Shown: positions 893 to 11,213 of the stretch, one piece after another
Numbering within the stretch: position 1 is the stretch's first letter
Layout: each line of letters begins with the position of its first letter
IMG/VR virus record: IMGVR_UViG_2698536620_000007
DNA from: a virus
Taxonomy: Duplodnaviria > Heunggongvirae > Uroviricota > Caudoviricetes
Length of the DNA: 43,864 bases
Reading direction: 5' to 3' (one strand)
Translations under genes and position numbers: made by a program
The notes under the pieces: model-generated
The model's database searches: none
What the model was told of the DNA's origin: nothing
The model's input: the letters and a program-made list of their open reading frames with translations, nothing else

Positions 893-1438
893 TTAACCCG
901 CTTTTGGTTCTACCGCGTTAGATTTGCGACTTCTCTCAGTTTCTTCCAAAATCTCTCTGACGCGTTCGTCAGACATACCTTCAAGCTGTAATGCAGCTAT
1001 TCTTTTCCTTCCTTCTAAGCGGATTAGATCTTGATTTTCAGGCTCTAACAACCGAGCTAAGTACTTGGCTCCATTCAGAACCAAATTTTTCGATAGCTGC
1101 TCTAAGTCTTTTTCATCAAGTGCGCTGATAATCGTCATAATTATCTTCTTGCTTTCATCTTGATTTTCCTTGATCTCACACCGATTCACTTGTGATGCAT
1201 CACTGAATCCACATAGCCACTCAACACTTACTCCTTCGATAGACGCAATCTGAAGGGCGACACTTAAGGATGGCTCAGTGCCACGAGACAGATAATTGTT
1301 TAGTGTTGAAAATGAAAGCCCCCAATCTCTTGCTGCAGCTCTGACGCTGCGGGAGCCAATCAGCCTTTTCAGACGCTCAGCAATGCTTTCTTTTCTACCA
1401 CCAGGAAAAGAAAGAGATGTTGTTGTTTGCTTGTTCAT
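893..1438 (-). CDS. Prophage repressor (Mu c-like, HTH)
   Basis: 181-aa minus-strand ORF at the left end, divergent from ner, as in Mu. HTH-like segment AARDWGLSFSTLNNYLSRG. Confidence 0.65.
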   Translation of the reverse strand: MNKQTTTSLSFPGGRKESIAERLKRLIGSRSVRAAARDWGLSFSTLNNYLSRGTEPSLSVALQIASIEGVSVEWLCGFSDASQVNRCEIKENQDESKKIIMTIISALDEKDLEQLSKNLVLNGAKYLARLLEPENQDLIRLEGRKRIAALQLEGMSDERVREILEETERSRKSNAVEPKAG

Positions 1439-1856: not shown

Positions 1857-3944
1857 ATGTTTGCTTCAGTTAAAGAACTGGTTGGATTACCGGGGATGCC
1901 GGGAACGGAGCAAGGCGTTCGCTATTCAATCAGGAAGTATGCAACCAGCGAAACCAGCAGACGCCGCAAGAAAGGCGCTAAAGGTTTTGAATACAGCATT
2001 GACTGTTTACCTGAAGTGACACAGCAGGCATTACGCGAACGTTATGCCCTGCAACTGATGACGCAAAAAGCCGATGAATCACCGGCTCCGGTGGTGACAA
2101 AGGCCAGACGCTCGTCTGCCGTGGTTGATGCGGTGGAGGCATATCGCGGATCACCACAACTGATGGTCGAACGCCTCAATGCCCTGACTGAAAACCAGCG
2201 CCAGGTGGCAGACGCACGCATTGCGATCGTCAGTGAGGTGCTGAAATTCACGCAACAACCCGGTTTCAGCTGCGCTAAAGCTATCCGGTTCCTCGTTAAC
2301 AGCCTGGCACGATCACAACTGGACGAGCGCATTGTGGCAATGGTTGAGACGGCGAACGCCAAAAAGGGAAACAGCCGCGCGTTGAGTGAAATCACGCTGA
2401 AACGCTGGATTGCGGCCTTTAACAAGGCACAGAACGCCGCTGAACGCCTGCTTTTACTGGCACCGGGTAAACGCCAGGAAATAAAAGCCGAAGATATTAA
2501 CTGGCTGCCCGAATTTCTGGCGCAGTATCGCCAGTCAAACGGCCGACCAATGACCGAGGCTTACGAGGATTTTGTTGCTGAATGGCAGCACCGGCACGCT
2601 GATGAGCCTTATATGCTCGATATCATGCCCTCTTATGACACCATTCGCCGCGCAATGAAGAAACTGCCGGAAGTGGTGAAACAAAAAGGCCGGGTAACTG
2701 GCAGTGAATACCGTCAGCTTGAGGGATTCACGCGCCGCGACTGGTCCAGAATGCCGGTGAATTATGTCTGGATTGGTGACGGTCACGGCATGAAGCTGAA
2801 ATGCGCGCACCCGGTTCACGGGCGGCCATTCGCACCGGAAGTGACCTTTGTTATCGACGGTGGCACGCGCTTTGTGGTGGGCTGGAGCCTTGACCTGGCT
2901 GAAAATGTTTTCGCCGTAGCCGGTGCCATACAGCACGGTATTCGCCATCATGGCAAACCGTTTCTGTATTACTCGGATAATGGCTCCGGGGAAACCGCCG
3001 ACGTCCTGGATAAGGAGATTGTGGGGATACTGCCACGACTGGGGATTAATCACCCGACAGGGATTGCCGGTAATCCGCAGGGACGGGGCATTATCGAACG
3101 GCTTAACCGCACATTACCGATGCGCATAGCCCGTAAATACCGCACCTATTTCGGGAAAGGAGCAGATCGCGAGACGTTACGTAAAACCAACCGCGATTTA
3201 CGCTCGGCATTCAGTGCCCTGCAACAGGGCAAACGGCTGAACGCCCGGCAGCAGTCAGCGATGCGTGATTTACCGTCCTGGTCTGAACTGATTGATGCCA
3301 TTCGTGACGGTGTTGAGTGGTACAACAACCGGCCGCACGATGAATTACCCATGAAGCCGAACGGTAAACATTACAGCCCGGCGGAGTTCAGAAAAAAACG
3401 CCTGGCGGAAGAGGACACGGAAATTGAATGGCTGTCCGATGTTGAACTGCGGGATATGTTCCGGCCGATGGTGGAGCGCCCTGTAAGACGCTGTGAAATA
3501 CGCTGGCTGAATAATATTTACTACGCGCCCGAGCTGCGTGACGAGCATGGCCGTAAGGTACTTATCAGCTATGACATTCATGATGCCGAACGAATTACCG
3601 TGCGCCGCCCGGATGGCAGCGTGATTTGCGAGGCGGTATGGGACGGCAATAAACGCGAAGCCTTCCCTGTCAGCGCGGAATACTACAAACAGCAGCAGCG
3701 CCTTAAAGGCATGCGTAAACGCGCAGAGGAAAAAATCCGTGATGCCGAGGATGAGGTTGTCAACGTGCTGGAGCACAAGCCGCAGGAGCCCTGGCTGGAA
3801 AACATATACCGCCCTGTGGGTAATACGGTGACCGTTCAGCAACCGGTCGCTGACGATGAACCTGATGAAGAATACGAGCGTAATTTCCAGCGGGGATTGC
3901 AACTGCTCGAAGCGAAATTAAAAGAAAGTGATCCGCTGGCCTGA
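1857..3944 (+). CDS. Mu A-like DDE transposase
   Basis: 695 aa, position after ner, size similar to MuA; 4-nt gap after ner. Confidence 0.9.
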   Translation: MFASVKELVGLPGMPGTEQGVRYSIRKYATSETSRRRKKGAKGFEYSIDCLPEVTQQALRERYALQLMTQKADESPAPVVTKARRSSAVVDAVEAYRGSPQLMVERLNALTENQRQVADARIAIVSEVLKFTQQPGFSCAKAIRFLVNSLARSQLDERIVAMVETANAKKGNSRALSEITLKRWIAAFNKAQNAAERLLLLAPGKRQEIKAEDINWLPEFLAQYRQSNGRPMTEAYEDFVAEWQHRHADEPYMLDIMPSYDTIRRAMKKLPEVVKQKGRVTGSEYRQLEGFTRRDWSRMPVNYVWIGDGHGMKLKCAHPVHGRPFAPEVTFVIDGGTRFVVGWSLDLAENVFAVAGAIQHGIRHHGKPFLYYSDNGSGETADVLDKEIVGILPRLGINHPTGIAGNPQGRGIIERLNRTLPMRIARKYRTYFGKGADRETLRKTNRDLRSAFSALQQGKRLNARQQSAMRDLPSWSELIDAIRDGVEWYNNRPHDELPMKPNGKHYSPAEFRKKRLAEEDTEIEWLSDVELRDMFRPMVERPVRRCEIRWLNNIYYAPELRDEHGRKVLISYDIHDAERITVRRPDGSVICEAVWDGNKREAFPVSAEYYKQQQRLKGMRKRAEEKIRDAEDEVVNVLEHKPQEPWLENIYRPVGNTVTVQQPVADDEPDEEYERNFQRGLQLLEAKLKESDPLA

Positions 3945-4017: not shown

Positions 4018-4959
4018 GTGAATAATATGACCGATATTAACGATGTAATCAAGACCATTGATGAACTTATTGATGGCGGCGTACTGACGCAGTATGCCAT
4101 CGCCAGAGAGGCGGGAATTTCCGACGGCACATTATCGGCTTTCCGTAAGGGAAAATATAAAGGCGATAACGCTGCTGTGGCTGCTTCCCTGCGCTCCTGG
4201 TATGAGAACTGGAATAAACAAAGCGCACTGCCGGAACCGCCGCAGTTTGTGGAAACTCAGACAGTCCAGGAGCTGCGCGCACTGTTTCAGGCGGTTCGCC
4301 TGATGGGCTGTATTAACGTTATTGTGGGCGTACCGGGTGTGGGTAAAACGGCCACTGCCCGTAATTACTGCCAGGAGCAACCAAACACCTGGATGATCAC
4401 CCTGTCACCCGCGCACTCCAGCGTCACGGAGTGTCTGCTGGAGCTGGCCGATGCGCTGGGGATTGATTACACCCGCGCGAACAAAGGGGCATTATCCCGC
4501 GCCATCCGCCGTCGCCTGATGGGAACGCGTGGACTGGTGATTGTGGATGAGGCGGATCATCTTGGTATTGACGGTCTGGAGCAACTCCGGGCAATTCAGG
4601 ACGCCACGGGGATCGGGATGGTGCTTATTGGTAACCCGCGCGGATTGTTTAAAGGTGGACGCCGCGCCTTTGATGATTTATCGCGCCTGTTCAGCCGTCT
4701 TGCCCGTACAAAACAACTTCGCAAGGCCAAAAAGGCGGATGTGCTGGCCATTGCCATGGCGTGGGGGATCAGTGGTGAGGCCGAGCTGGCCGTCATGCAG
4801 GCTATCGCTGAAAAGCCGGGAGCGTTACGCGTTCTGACACATACGCTTAACCAGGCGTGGCTCACCGCCAGCGGTGAAGGCGCGGCGCTGACAGAAAAAC
4901 ATATTAATGCGGCCTTTAAAGAGGTTTATACCAACCCTGAATTACTCTCACAGGTGTGA
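4018..4959 (+). CDS. Mu B-like transposition ATPase / target DNA activator
   Basis: 313 aa with Walker A GVPGVGKT and Walker B VIVDEADH; follows transposase A. Confidence 0.85.
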   Translation: MNNMTDINDVIKTIDELIDGGVLTQYAIAREAGISDGTLSAFRKGKYKGDNAAVAASLRSWYENWNKQSALPEPPQFVETQTVQELRALFQAVRLMGCINVIVGVPGVGKTATARNYCQEQPNTWMITLSPAHSSVTECLLELADALGIDYTRANKGALSRAIRRRLMGTRGLVIVDEADHLGIDGLEQLRAIQDATGIGMVLIGNPRGLFKGGRRAFDDLSRLFSRLARTKQLRKAKKADVLAIAMAWGISGEAELAVMQAIAEKPGALRVLTHTLNQAWLTASGEGAALTEKHINAAFKEVYTNPELLSQV

Positions 4960-7521: not shown

Positions 7522-8036
7522 TGTTCTTTAAAACATCAAACCCTTCCGCGCTGGCTGCGTGGCAAAAATACCAGCAGGACTGCCAGAAAGTTAAGGATGA
7601 GGCAAAACGCCTTGAGGCCGTGCTGAATGTTGCGTGCCGGTCGGTATTTGTATCCGGTATCAGTGGATTTTACTTTAAGGGACTGCGTTTTACGGAGGAC
7701 AAATATCCTTTTCATCGCGACTTATGGCGAAAACCGACTGCGTCGAATGGCTGGAGCTGCACACCGCGCACATCACGTATCCCTAAAACCCTGCGTGTTG
7801 CCTCTGATGAACTGAACAGTCTGTGGCGTGAATATTCGCCCGTCACGTATGCCAGAACCGATGCGCTGTTGTTCTGGTTGGGTATTGATTTCTCGGCAAT
7901 CCTGTTTGGCCCTGTGAAGTGGTTCTGCGTTGACGATGTGATTTACCTTCAGTGCGGCGTAAAACCCGCAAAACAGAAAATGACCGAAATACTGTCTGAT
8001 GAGTTTTATGCTGCTGAAAAGCGAGTCAGGGGGTGA
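7521..8036 (+). CDS. Hypothetical early protein
   Basis: 171-aa ORF; stop/start overlap with the neighbour. Confidence 0.45.
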   Translation: MFFKTSNPSALAAWQKYQQDCQKVKDEAKRLEAVLNVACRSVFVSGISGFYFKGLRFTEDKYPFHRDLWRKPTASNGWSCTPRTSRIPKTLRVASDELNSLWREYSPVTYARTDALLFWLGIDFSAILFGPVKWFCVDDVIYLQCGVKPAKQKMTEILSDEFYAAEKRVRG

Positions 8037-8039
8037 TGC

Positions 8040-8591
8040 ATGATGAAATTACAACCCATGGGACTAAAAGGTCGCGCCCCCGCTCATGTCCGTCCGTGGA
8101 CACCTGAAGAAGATGCGCTGCTGATTGCGCTTTATTCATCCACCCCGGTTAAGGATATTGCTGCCAGAATAAAAAGAACTGTCTGGGCTGTATATAACCG
8201 GACTGGTGTATTGCGCAGTTCATACCCGGAGTTACTGAAATATAAACACCCAAGATTTACACCTGATGAAGATAAGTTTATTCGAAAAAATGCCAGAACA
8301 ATGACCTGCCAGCAAATGGGAGAATATCTCGGACGTAATAAAGATTCTGTCAGATGTCGGGCAGGAATGATTGGTGCTGGATTAACAAAGTGCGGAGAGT
8401 TACGCCCCGGCACGCGCATATCTGATGATGATGTACGTCTTATACGTGAGCTGCGTGATTCCGATTACCCACGCCGTCTGTCATTCCGGGAAATTGGCGA
8501 AAAGTTTGGAATATCTGAACATTCTGCTCACGCAGTTTATTACCGTCGCCGGACTGCCGAGGACGCTGTATTACGGGAGTTAACGCCATGA
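8040..8591 (+). CDS. Putative DNA-binding protein with two Myb/SANT-like repeats and a C-terminal HTH
   Basis: WTPEEDALLIALY and FTPDEDKFIRKNA repeat units plus a C-terminal HTH-like LSFREIGEKFGISEHSAHAVYYRR. Confidence 0.45.
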   Translation: MMKLQPMGLKGRAPAHVRPWTPEEDALLIALYSSTPVKDIAARIKRTVWAVYNRTGVLRSSYPELLKYKHPRFTPDEDKFIRKNARTMTCQQMGEYLGRNKDSVRCRAGMIGAGLTKCGELRPGTRISDDDVRLIRELRDSDYPRRLSFREIGEKFGISEHSAHAVYYRRRTAEDAVLRELTP

Positions 8592-8920
8592 TAACGACCT
8601 TATTTGTTGAATCAGATGAACCTCTTGTGTGTGCCGCCGGAATGCCGCTCTGTGGCGGAACGCTGACCGGCGTTTATTTCGGGGATTTGCGCGGTTATCC
8701 CTGGCATTCACTGGATGACGCATTTCCGCCTGATATGGAGGCTGTCGTGCTGATTGTTCAGTATGGTGACCAACAGGAACTGCGCATCGGCCATATGGGG
8801 TATGAAGGCTTTTTTATTGATGAAGAAACCGGAGCCTGCCTTGAAGATGAGGACGGACAGGTGACGCACTGGTGCCATCTTTCGGCCTTGCCGGAATTAC
8901 AGGGGATACATAATGGATGA
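8588..8920 (+). CDS. Hypothetical early protein
   Basis: 110-aa ORF overlapping the previous stop. Confidence 0.4.
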   Translation: MITTLFVESDEPLVCAAGMPLCGGTLTGVYFGDLRGYPWHSLDDAFPPDMEAVVLIVQYGDQQELRIGHMGYEGFFIDEETGACLEDEDGQVTHWCHLSALPELQGIHNG

Positions 8921-9056
8921 GCAAATTGTTGAATGTCCCACCTGTGGAAATGAGGACCCGGAGTATCTGAAAGAGTGCCCACATTGTGGTGAGATAAAAT
9001 GTAACCACTGCGATATGGGCGACGACACTGCATGTATAAATTGTGAGGATGAATAA
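8913..9056 (+). CDS. Small zinc-ribbon protein (four CxxC motifs), not in the ORF track
   Basis: ATG at 8913; 47 aa MDEQIVECPTCGNEDPEYLKECPHCGEIKCNHCDMGDDTACINCEDE; stop overlaps the next start (TAATATG). Confidence 0.45.
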   Translation: MDEQIVECPTCGNEDPEYLKECPHCGEIKCNHCDMGDDTACINCEDE

Positions 9057-9057
9057 T

Positions 9058-9345
9058 ATGGAAAAAGAAATCAAATTTGCGCCTAAATCTATCGACGAAG
9101 AACTGGCTAAAATCGGCATGCTTGAACGTATGCGGGACATTATCGAATATGCGATAAAAGAAAATCTTGCAGCCAGAGAAGCCCTTTTGATAATGGAGCG
9201 GGAGATTAACCTGATTAAGGATGCTGTATCTCTGGATAATAAAATAGCCCGCGAGGAATACGTTCGCCGTAGGCTCGGTGTTGATGGTTCAGCAATTCTT
9301 ACATCTGAACATTATGCAAAAATTTTTAATCTTTTTCAGCGGTAA
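9058..9345 (+). CDS. Hypothetical early protein
   Basis: ATG at 9058 overlapping the upstream stop; 95 aa, predicted helical. Confidence 0.45.
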   Translation: MEKEIKFAPKSIDEELAKIGMLERMRDIIEYAIKENLAAREALLIMEREINLIKDAVSLDNKIAREEYVRRRLGVDGSAILTSEHYAKIFNLFQR

Positions 9346-9565
9346 TCCCCATACAGGCCCGGAGATTGTCGAAATGCCAGTCGGTATTAATATATGAGCC
9401 ATCCTGGATATCTTCTGCATTTTCCGGGGTAGAGTTTTTTTGAGCGAGATTGATAATATGTATTGCCTCCTCACGGGAAATCAGCCCCTTATCGAACAGG
9501 GTTACCATAAGATTTCCAGCCATTGTGAATGCGGCAACATCAAGTGCATTTTTTATATCTGACAT
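9326..9565 (-). CDS. Reverse-oriented small protein inside the early region (moron-like)
   Basis: 79-aa minus-strand ORF, convergent with the 9058..9345 gene; the only minus-strand gene in the early operon. Confidence 0.4.
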   Translation of the reverse strand: MSDIKNALDVAAFTMAGNLMVTLFDKGLISREEAIHIINLAQKNSTPENAEDIQDGSYINTDWHFDNLRACMGITAEKD

Positions 9566-9593
9566 AGATTTTTCCTTTTATGTTAATTGACAT

Positions 9594-9621
9594 GGCGGTG
9601 CGGTAACACCGCCCATTTTTT
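9594..9621 (+). terminator. Intrinsic terminator-like hairpin with T tract
   Basis: GGCGGTG-CGGTAA-CACCGCC followed by CATTTTTTAT, immediately upstream of the gp16/GemA start. Confidence 0.45.
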
Positions 9622-9635
9622 ATGGAGCCACGATA

Positions 9636-10148
9636 ATGAATCGCGCTTCCCTGATTACCTTAATACATGTCGCAAAACGCGATCTACAGCTTGACCATGA
9701 TACCTATACATCCGCGCTGCTGGCAGCCACCGGCAAATCCAGTTGCCGTGATATGTCACCCGGTGAGTTATCCCGCGTGCTGGATGTTTTCAAAAAACGC
9801 GGTTTTAAAGTGCGTCAGAAGCCGGTTAACCGGGCCTTAAAACCGGGTACGGTGACCGCCAAAATTCGCGCCATCTGGAAAGTGATGCACCGGCAGGGAT
9901 TTATCTCTGATGGCGGGGAAACGGCCCTTAACCGCTGGGTGAAATCGCAGACGGCCGCGCAGAACGACGGCGAAGGTGTGGCTAACTGGCAGTGGCTGGA
10001 GCAACAACCCGCGCTGGCCTCTGATGTGCTGGAGCGTCTCAAACGCTGGCACCGCCGCAAAATGCTGGCAGCCCTGGATATGTCGGAACGTGCAGTGATG
10101 AGTTATGAGCGTGTTTGCAGGCTGTATGAAAAATCATTCCCCCGTTAA
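9636..10148 (+). CDS. Mu gp16/GemA-like protein
   Basis: 170 aa at the position of Mu gemA just before the Mor/C-family gene. Confidence 0.65.
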   Translation: MNRASLITLIHVAKRDLQLDHDTYTSALLAATGKSSCRDMSPGELSRVLDVFKKRGFKVRQKPVNRALKPGTVTAKIRAIWKVMHRQGFISDGGETALNRWVKSQTAAQNDGEGVANWQWLEQQPALASDVLERLKRWHRRKMLAALDMSERAVMSYERVCRLYEKSFPR

Positions 10149-10152
10149 CCCC

Positions 10153-10184
10153 AAATCCCGCCACAGCGCGGGATTTTTATTTTA
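10153..10184 (+). terminator. Rho-independent terminator after the early operon
   Basis: AAATCCCGC-loop-GCGGGATTT followed by TTATTTT. Confidence 0.6.
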
Positions 10185-10218
10185 AACTTGCCCTGTGTAA
10201 TGATGACCGGAGGCGGGT

Positions 10219-10641
10219 ATGGCTGAAACACAGATGAGCATGTTTGGTGACAGCGAACAGCTGCACGCGCTGATTGACCGTCTGGATGATATTCCTGATG
10301 ATGAGCTGAAAAAGAACTGGCCCGGCACGCTGCGGGACCTGGTTGATGTGATCAGTGCTGAACTGCACCGTCAGGGGATTGAACCTGCTCAGGCGGGAAT
10401 GCTTGCCCGTAAGGTTGCAGCCGCACAGGCCGGGTACATGGGCGGGCGTGGTTATTATCTCCCGGTCGGTGAATCCCTTTTCACCGAACTGCGCAATAAT
10501 GAAATTTTTTCCCGCTGGAGCCAGGGCGAAAAAATTGAAACCCTGCGCCGCCACTACCAGATGTCAGAGACGCAGATTTACTCCGTTATCCGCAACCAGC
10601 GTCGCCTGCATCAGGAACGCACGCAGCCACGGCTTTTCTGA
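10219..10641 (+). CDS. Mor/C-family transcriptional activator
   Basis: 140 aa with the Mor/C C-terminal pattern (GG..YLP.G......R...IF..W..G......R.Y..S...IY.VIR..RR); good RBS GGAGG. Confidence 0.75.
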   Translation: MAETQMSMFGDSEQLHALIDRLDDIPDDELKKNWPGTLRDLVDVISAELHRQGIEPAQAGMLARKVAAAQAGYMGGRGYYLPVGESLFTELRNNEIFSRWSQGEKIETLRRHYQMSETQIYSVIRNQRRLHQERTQPRLF

Positions 10642-10712
10642 TATTCCGCAAATCCTGCCCCCTTTTCCTCACGGTTACGCTGACTCAGAGAACACCATGA
10701 GACAGCGTAACA

Positions 10713-11213
10713 ATGCCAAAACTCCCCGCACCCCTGCGTAAAAAGCTGATTGCCCTTGTTCTGGCCGGAGCCGGGACGTTCACCATTGCCACGCACTACA
10801 CCGGCTACTGGGAAGGGAAAGAAAACACCACGTACATTGATCCCACCGGCACCCCCACCATCTGTTACGGCCATACCGGCCCGGATGTGAAACCGGGGAT
10901 GACAAAAACTGATGAAGAGTGTCTGGAGCTGCTGGAAAAGGACATGAAATGGGCCTTTGCGGCTATCGATCGTCATGTTCAGGTGCCGCTTACCCGTGGT
11001 CAGACGGTGGCGCTGGCCTCCTGGATTTTCTGGGCCGGTGAAACGAACTTTCGCAACTCCACGCTCCTGCGCCTTATCAATGCCGGGCAGATGCCCGCGT
11101 CCTGTAAGCAGTATATCCGCTGGATTTATTCAAAGGGGGTAAAACTCCCCGGTCTTGAGGCCCGCCGTTCGGCGGATGAATGGTTATGTCGTTACGATTT
11201 GCCGAAAGTCTGA
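10713..11213 (+). CDS. SAR endolysin (GH24 lysozyme with N-terminal signal-anchor-release domain)
   Basis: N-terminal weakly hydrophobic LIALVLAGAGTFTIA, then catalytic E-x8-D-x5-T (EGKENTTYIDPTGTPT) typical of T4-type lysozymes. Confidence 0.8.
   Translation: MPKLPAPLRKKLIALVLAGAGTFTIATHYTGYWEGKENTTYIDPTGTPTICYGHTGPDVKPGMTKTDEECLELLEKDMKWAFAAIDRHVQVPLTRGQTVALASWIFWAGETNFRNSTLLRLINAGQMPASCKQYIRWIYSKGVKLPGLEARRSADEWLCRYDLPKV

Follow-up and report, generated by a model that had tools for sequence, protein, structure and literature searches.

The early region of the prophage analysed here contains, between a gp14-like gene and gemA, a small leftward gene and next to it a GC-rich stem-loop with a U-rich tail, and both are common property of the Mu family rather than a new insertion. 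Judged from profile comparisons and gene order, the leftward gene is the orthologue of gene 15 of Mu (gp15, Mup15), which was already known but is uncharacterised, and the present locus adds a member that carries the family's hairpin. The hairpin is conserved and covaries among relatives, and it is best read, with moderate confidence, as a leaky intrinsic terminator, or attenuator, through which part of the rightward early transcription would pass into gemA-mor. Although Mu serves as a model phage, no function has ever been assigned to its gene 15 or to the sequence that precedes gemA. If the hairpin is a leaky terminator, it would set the amount of Mor that is made from the early transcript, and it would thus matter for when the phage switches from early to middle transcription and for the silence of mor in lysogens. 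The prophage taken alone is mostly ordinary, with a family-typical gene and a regulatory element.

The DNA that was analysed (the window) is a stretch of 43,864 nt; it is a Mu-like E. coli prophage. Of 5426 complete E. coli genomes, 21 were found to have the 361 bases surrounding the site, always on the chromosome, and most of this stretch is present in 13 of the 21; the NCBI label for the leftward ORF in these genomes is hypothetical protein. The features needed below are the following.

893-1438, minus strand: repressor, the left boundary of the early region in the scan
1857-3944: ORF of the size of MuA, from the ORF list
4018-4959: ORF of the size of MuB, followed by several small rightward genes
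9058-9345, plus strand: gp14-like gene (phrog_6075, E 5e-44; blastn similarity to genes 13/14 of Mu and D108)
9326-9565, minus strand: leftward 79-aa gene (ORF79) with an ATG start, matching phrog_32893
9566-9593: AT-rich spacer of 28 nt that separates the hairpin from the start of the leftward gene, read from the sequence
9594-9613, plus strand: GC-rich stem-loop GGCGGTG-cggtaa-CACCGCC, from folding and conservation
9614-9623, plus strand: tail CATTTTTTAT directly 3′ of the stem, with a U6 tract at 9616-9621
9624-10148, plus strand: gemA ribosome-binding site GGAG (9624-9627) and gemA coding sequence (9636-10148; PF06252, E 1.8e-28)
10153-10186, plus strand: second terminator-like hairpin AAATCCCGC-cacagc-GCGGGATTT with the tail TTATTTTAAA, in the gap between gemA and mor
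10219-10641: mor, Mor-family activator (PF08765, E 7e-31)
10713-11213: endolysin, directly after mor

The initial annotation had described a 79-aa minus-strand ORF as the only leftward gene of the early region, followed by a hairpin with a T tract in front of gemA. It was verified that the ORF is present at 9326-9565, that it begins with ATG and that a Shine-Dalgarno-like AAGGAA (9572-9577, minus strand) lies inside the spacer. Its 3′ end overlaps that of the convergent gp14-like gene by 20 nt. None of the five other ORFs on the minus strand in the interval from the repressor to mor had a PHROG match, and hence the 79-aa ORF is the only leftward gene of this region with family support. The hairpin, with its stem at 9594-9613 and six T at 9616-9621, was likewise found in front of the gemA ATG at 9636, and the Pfam matches listed above bore out the naming of gemA and mor.

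The leftward gene and its family

The homology search that had been proposed for the 79-aa protein led to phrog_32893, a PHROG without annotated function that was matched over residues 1-79 with an E-value of 1.3e-45, and with profiles it led to the Mu gp15 family. When sub-profiles that had been built separately were compared with hhalign, the ORF79 type was linked to the Mu gp15 group at 97.4% (E 1.4e-11) and to the D108-type group at 98.8% (E 4.5e-17). BLASTP linked ORF79 to the D108 type (E 2e-6), and a pairwise BLASTP of ORF79 against Mu gp15 alone was not significant; the identity of the two proteins is only about 22%, and they are alike over the N-terminal half only. The family shares the N-terminal motif FDxAAFxLAGNxLxxLxxKGxIS..EA, and the C-terminal DWHLDNL is found in the ORF79 branch. 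An exhaustive HMMER search of 1.84 billion representative proteins with the joint profile returned only 24 matches, one of which was noise; this 4745-aa match with 23 repeats is a spider spidroin and was discarded as compositional. The dN/dS values among close homologs of ORF79 were 0.17-0.39 (22 pairs), and the differences were mostly synonymous; by this measure the leftward gene is protein-coding and under purifying selection.

The AlphaFold model of the ORF79 protein (pLDDT 78) has helices at residues 2-25, 31-45 and 62-71, and the product is predicted to be small, acidic and three-helical. The gp15 family of three-helix proteins is small and Mu-restricted. Searches for a function of ORF79 in Pfam, NCBIfam, PADLOC, the PDB by sequence, and with Foldseek in the PDB and BFVD returned nothing significant, and the sole recognisable fold match, at a non-significant E-value, was Q38493, the left-end ORF of Mu itself.

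An observation on the side concerns frameshifts. A run of eight A lies within ORF79 on the coding (minus) strand (9434-9441), and in the homologs P0005, P0007-P0010 and L131 a frameshift follows about residue 43-52, with more than one site affected. These database entries may reflect decay, sequencing error or slippage.

In about 30 distinct family loci the gene is always leftward, lies in a Mu-type early region and is convergent with a gp14-like gene. The genomic context was read for 14 family representatives; in every one the gene was leftward with its 3′ end overlapping the gp14-like gene, in 11 it was directly divergent from gemA, and in the remaining 3 it was divergent from another rightward gene, with gemA further on. 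Because place and orientation were the same in all representatives, the gene is regarded as an old, conserved part of the family and not as a private insertion. In RefSeq Mu (NC_000929) Mup15/gp15 (NP_050619) is leftward at 7896-8162, between gene 14 and gemA, and it thus agrees with ORF79 in family, position, orientation, hairpin stem and the spacer to gemA, which is 70 bp in both phages. A leftward ORF at this site of Mu, 'F-134', was contained already in the 1991 left-end record M64097, and D108 has an unannotated leftward ORF of 119 aa in the same gap. The proposal that the gene had been inserted into the early operon is therefore not supported, since in Mu, in D108 and in all other family loci examined the orthologue sits at this position and points the same way.

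The annotations of Mu are in conflict at this point. NC_000929 has the leftward gp15, itself uncharacterised, while AF083977 replaces it by Mu_54, a rightward ORF of 55 aa on the opposite strand (L001 1397-1663). The rightward Mu_54 frame is open in some relatives and closed in L094. Family-wide conservation, synteny and dN/dS favour the leftward gp15, and not Mu_54, as the probable gene.

The site is also a variable slot. In some relatives a gp15-type gene is found there, in L007 a leftward gene unrelated to it, in L013 a deletion, and in 18 loci nothing. The unrelated gene in L007, from E. coli JE86-ST02, is a leftward gene of 136 aa (1045-1455) with a weak DUF2513 match below the Pfam cut-off, and this cargo gene has a hairpin of its own, CGGGCGGCG-ttgc-CATGCCGCCTG. 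In L013 this unrelated leftward gene is lost, and the hairpin is retained as a plain intercistronic element with a better T-run. Homology breakpoints between relatives and two IS1 insertions were found at or beside the hairpin. The IS1 copies lie in the spacer or hairpin between the gp15-like gene and gemA, at 1819-2516 of L004 (E. coli 2012EL-2448) and at 1792-2488 of L005 (2018-166), and homology to the window stops at 9603 and 9575, respectively. In L090, L094 and L095 another leftward gene was seen in the slot between gemA and mor.

The hairpin and its conservation among relatives

The stem of the hairpin has 7 bp, 6 of which are G-C, and the loop has 6 nt; as RNA it has a folding energy of -13.2 kcal/mol (z = -2.1). 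The stem is followed by CA, the six T and GGAG, and the distance from the end of the hairpin to the gemA ATG is 22 nt. RNA folding predicted the hairpin, a small adjacent hairpin and a hairpin at the gemA Shine-Dalgarno sequence and AUG, and no alternative pairing that would disrupt the stem was obtained. A scan of the region for terminator-like patterns found 15, compared with 14.6 expected from shuffled sequences, and thus no enrichment. Since this count matches the shuffles, the pattern alone proves nothing, and the case rests on conservation and covariation in relatives. A search of Rfam at the hairpin gave only sub-threshold chance matches. The stem motif occurs once in the window, and the idea of a repeated or REP-like element was discarded on account of this uniqueness.

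A GC-rich stem-loop was present at the same place in every gp15-type locus examined. The distances to both flanking genes were tabulated for 16 loci: in 13 of them the leftward ATG is 21-32 nt from the hairpin (50-66 nt in L088, L089 and L091), and in 13 the next rightward ATG follows the end of the hairpin at 16-22 nt (at 39 nt in L089 and L091); the automatic table behind these counts did not pick the GC hairpin of L089. Thirteen sequences of the GGCGG type could be aligned, and all 91 of their 91 pair cells were standard, with two pairs changed on both sides. Distant lineages have other stems at the same position, namely GACGGCGGC/GTCGCCGTC, AGGCCGCGC/GCGTGGCCT and TGGTGGCGG/CCGCCGCCA, and a 13-bp stem in L089. 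The window and Mu have the identical stem GGCGGTG/CACCGCC, despite GemA proteins that are only 44% identical.

The strand on which the structure acts could be read from the imperfect pairs. Each of the five non-Watson-Crick pairs inside the stem is G.U on the gemA-sense strand and would be an A.C mismatch on the other, a count from a small sample that leaves out the mis-registered row of L085 (one-sided p ~0.03). This favours an RNA structure on the rightward transcript over a DNA palindrome bound by a protein and over a leader of the leftward mRNA. The comparison with relatives as a whole shows that the hairpin is a selected RNA structure and did not arise by chance. The 8 nt after the stem contain 2-7 T in relatives, with a mean of 4.4 compared with 3.25 on the other strand. 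The tails are pyrimidine-rich in all loci and T-rich in most of them, for example TTTCTTTT, TCTTTTTT and TTTTTAAG. The tail of the window, with its U6, is among the strongest of the family, in contrast to Mu, where the tail CCCTTTCC is the weakest; L085 and L096 also have weak tails.

The occurrence of the hairpin was compared with that of the leftward gene at gemA-anchored loci. The hairpin is present in the 17 loci that have a leftward gene, whether of the gp15 type or the unrelated 136-aa gene, and absent from the 18 loci that have none and in which gemA overlaps the preceding rightward gene; the single further locus is L013, which has kept the hairpin and its T-run after loss of the gene. 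Most of the distant Mu-like prophages from other genera have neither the leftward gene nor the hairpin, and in a few of them an unrelated hairpin lies immediately in front of the gemA ribosome-binding site. The literature searched contained no account of the hairpin as an RNA element that is conserved and covaries; older papers lie outside this literature, and an earlier description is possible.

Several further structures were noticed near the hairpin. A small predicted hairpin at 9624-9650 of the window pairs the gemA Shine-Dalgarno GGAG with codons 4-5 and has the AUG in its loop; it is also predicted in Mu, D108 and L007, and in all four sequences it is inseparable from coding constraint. 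In several loci UCCUU, the plus-strand RNA complement of the leftward Shine-Dalgarno sequence, can pair with the gemA Shine-Dalgarno sequence around the larger hairpin. L088, L089 and L091 have an additional long inverted repeat, CTCCTGTTA...TAACAGGAG, over the Shine-Dalgarno sequence of the gp15-like gene, which could be an operator or a translational hairpin.

Possible roles of the hairpin

Three features of an intrinsic terminator are found in the window, namely a stable GC-rich stem-loop, a U-rich tract and selection on the RNA strand, and one part of the initial annotation, an attenuator in front of gemA, fits a conserved gemA-sense RNA structure with a U-rich tail before the gemA ribosome-binding site. 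Termination activity, leakiness and a physiological role are what we infer from it. Transcription from the early promoter would run antisense through gene 15 for about 290 untranslated nt, and the transcript would then meet the GC-rich stem and its U-rich tail 22 nt before the gemA start codon. A leaky attenuator or insulator at this point within the operon would lower and delay transcription into gemA and the lytic activator mor. The weak transcription of a lysogen would be stopped short of mor, and strong, derepressed early transcription would still read through. The hairpin cannot be a fully efficient terminator, as mor is located further downstream and the gap from the U tract to the gemA ribosome-binding site is too short to hold a promoter. 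Lytic growth requires mor, so that efficient termination would do harm, and leakiness is therefore assumed. Such gating of gemA-mor would not be universal, because Mu-like prophages that lack the leftward gene manage without a hairpin, and termination is possibly marginal in part of the family, given the weak U tracts of Mu, L085 and L096. In the literature searched no paper with term-seq or transcript 3′ mapping of Mu at the hairpin was found.

The same structure might instead be a 5′-proximal stem-loop that stabilises or processes a separate gemA-mor mRNA, which would either start at a gemA-proximal (semi-early or gem) promoter, situated within the stem or just to its left, or be cut from the early transcript, and which the hairpin would protect while keeping the ribosome-binding site open. 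AF083977 indeed annotates a semi-early promoter at 8151-8217, which covers the hairpin of Mu, and the gem operon is reported, as cited in PMC3820752, to be constitutively expressed in lysogens. The action on the plus strand, the constant distance of the hairpin to the Shine-Dalgarno sequence and the ATG, the weak U tract in Mu and an AT-rich stretch with -10-like hexamers that abuts the stem in many loci would also fit. However, no sigma-70-like -35/-10 promoter was found on the plus strand at 9300-9620, a consensus scan gave nothing usable as a promoter for either gemA or the leftward gene, and our own reading of 15 hairpin-anchored loci revealed no positionally conserved -35/-10 pair on either strand; a perfect TTGACA does occur at 9587-9592, but a -10 partner is missing and the hexamer is not conserved. 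Moreover, most members including the window have a canonical U-rich tail, which is not needed for stabilisation, and a stabilising role is thus considered possible but unlikely. Doubts are stronger for the other part of the initial annotation, an insulated moron, according to which the leftward gene would be accessory cargo with its own promoter in the prophage and the hairpin an insulator against the early operon. The polymorphism of the slot, with a gp15-type gene, the unrelated 136-aa gene or nothing, is as expected for a moron, and homology between relatives breaks at the hairpin. The gene has a G+C content of 41%, compared with 52-59% for gemA, but about 41% is found across the whole of 8920-9640, which includes the gp13- and gp14-like neighbours, and the value is higher only from gemA on, so that its composition is not distinct. 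The gene is orthologous and syntenic in Mu, D108 and distant Mu-like prophages, no minus-strand terminator follows 9326, where its 3′ end runs into the gp14-like gene, and the single promoter-like site found for it is weak (9726..9697, minus strand, inside gemA and 130 nt upstream). Since the hairpin is on the upstream side of the gene, it can neither end the transcript of the gene nor shield its body from early transcription. Searches with the PADLOC defence models gave no match up to an E-value of 1 for ORF79, Mu gp15, the D108-type protein or the DUF2513-like cargo. With presence/absence polymorphism on one side, and neither an own promoter and terminator nor a distinct composition on the other, we regard the moron as improbable.

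An inverted repeat between divergent genes might also be an operator, bound by a dimeric regulator such as Mor, the gp15-like protein or a host factor and serving divergent promoters of gene 15 and gemA. The dyad symmetry of 7+7 is perfect, and the stem has stayed identical in the window and Mu while the GemA proteins diverged; in distant lineages, however, the arms are unrelated in sequence and pairing alone is kept, and the imperfections are strand-asymmetric G.T pairs, as expected for RNA and not for a palindrome bound by a protein. The motif is present only once in the 43.9-kb window, structure and fold searches revealed no recognisable DNA-binding fold in the gp15-like protein, and the repeat is unlike the Mor site, which at Pm is a 16-bp element with 5-bp inverted repeats and a G/C-rich 6-nt spacer, centred at -43.5 (PMC4390567); by our own assignment it reads AGTAA-AGCCGG-TTAAT in Mu (L001 2674-2689). 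An operator is accordingly very unlikely. The more special case of a Mor-dependent promoter was dropped, as the GC-rich arms GGCGGTG do not resemble a Mor site and a start 43.5 bp from the centre would fall into coding sequence on either strand. Least credible of all is a role as leader, with the hairpin in the 5′-UTR of a leftward mRNA that would start inside the 5′ end of gemA, and with control of the stability or translation of that mRNA. The minus-strand fold of 9566-9650 is more stable (z = -3.6), the weak promoter-like site in gemA has the required orientation, and the hairpin accompanies any leftward gene in the slot. Yet the five internal wobble pairs would become A.C mismatches in the minus-strand RNA, and L013 has kept the hairpin without a leftward gene.

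A different candidate, an antisense sRNA or type I toxin-antitoxin system with a plus-strand sRNA ending at the hairpin, was rejected because there is no plus-strand promoter inside the gene and because the protein is soluble, acidic and not toxin-like.

In an extension of the leaky terminator, the leftward gene and the hairpin would form one conserved switch that sets the rightward passage into gemA-mor. It is tempting to speculate about such a switch, but we consider it rather improbable. It could operate by antitermination or termination at the stem, or by interference of convergent transcription; to our knowledge no antitermination factor is known for Mu. If it existed, it would be an unrecognised checkpoint of early/middle transcription in Mu-type phages, and it could explain the restriction of the hairpin to loci with a leftward gene.

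Comparison with known systems and the second hairpin

Intrinsic terminators and attenuators within operons are exemplified by the rpsU-dnaG terminator and the rplL-rpoB attenuator of E. coli and by lambda tR1. They consist of a GC-rich stem and a U tract between cistrons, and they lower distal expression while allowing read-through. The element of the window is similar to attenuators of the rpsU-dnaG type in having stem and U tract between cistrons, with the difference that termination is a prediction here, and that it follows an antisense-oriented gene whereas these attenuators follow a co-oriented one. Phage morons in the sense of Hendrix and Juhala include HK97 gp15 and lambda bor and lom. 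The leftward gene resembles them by analogy, being a small gene in a variable slot with plausibly independent expression, and it differs from them by the lack of an own terminator and of a promoter that could be found, by its neighbour-like composition and by its conserved position and orientation.

Within Mu itself, AF083977 annotates a terminator at 9179-9200 in the Pm region (t9.2). Like the element of the window, t9.2 consists of a hairpin and a T-run, is on the early strand and sits at one edge of the gemA-mor unit. In contrast to it, t9.2 is downstream of mor, ends the early transcript and overlaps Pm, whereas the element of the window is upstream of gemA. No hairpin or terminator was found after mor in the window (10641-10713), and the second hairpin is found between gemA and mor instead. 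The endolysin gene follows mor directly, whereas in Mu t9.2/Pm, genes 18-20 and C lie in between; the prophage may work with a single activator of the Mor/C type.

In the window gemA is thus bracketed by two plus-strand terminator-like hairpins (9594-9613 and 10153-10186). The second one may contribute, together with the first, to controlling entry into mor, and a hairpin related to it was found in L095.
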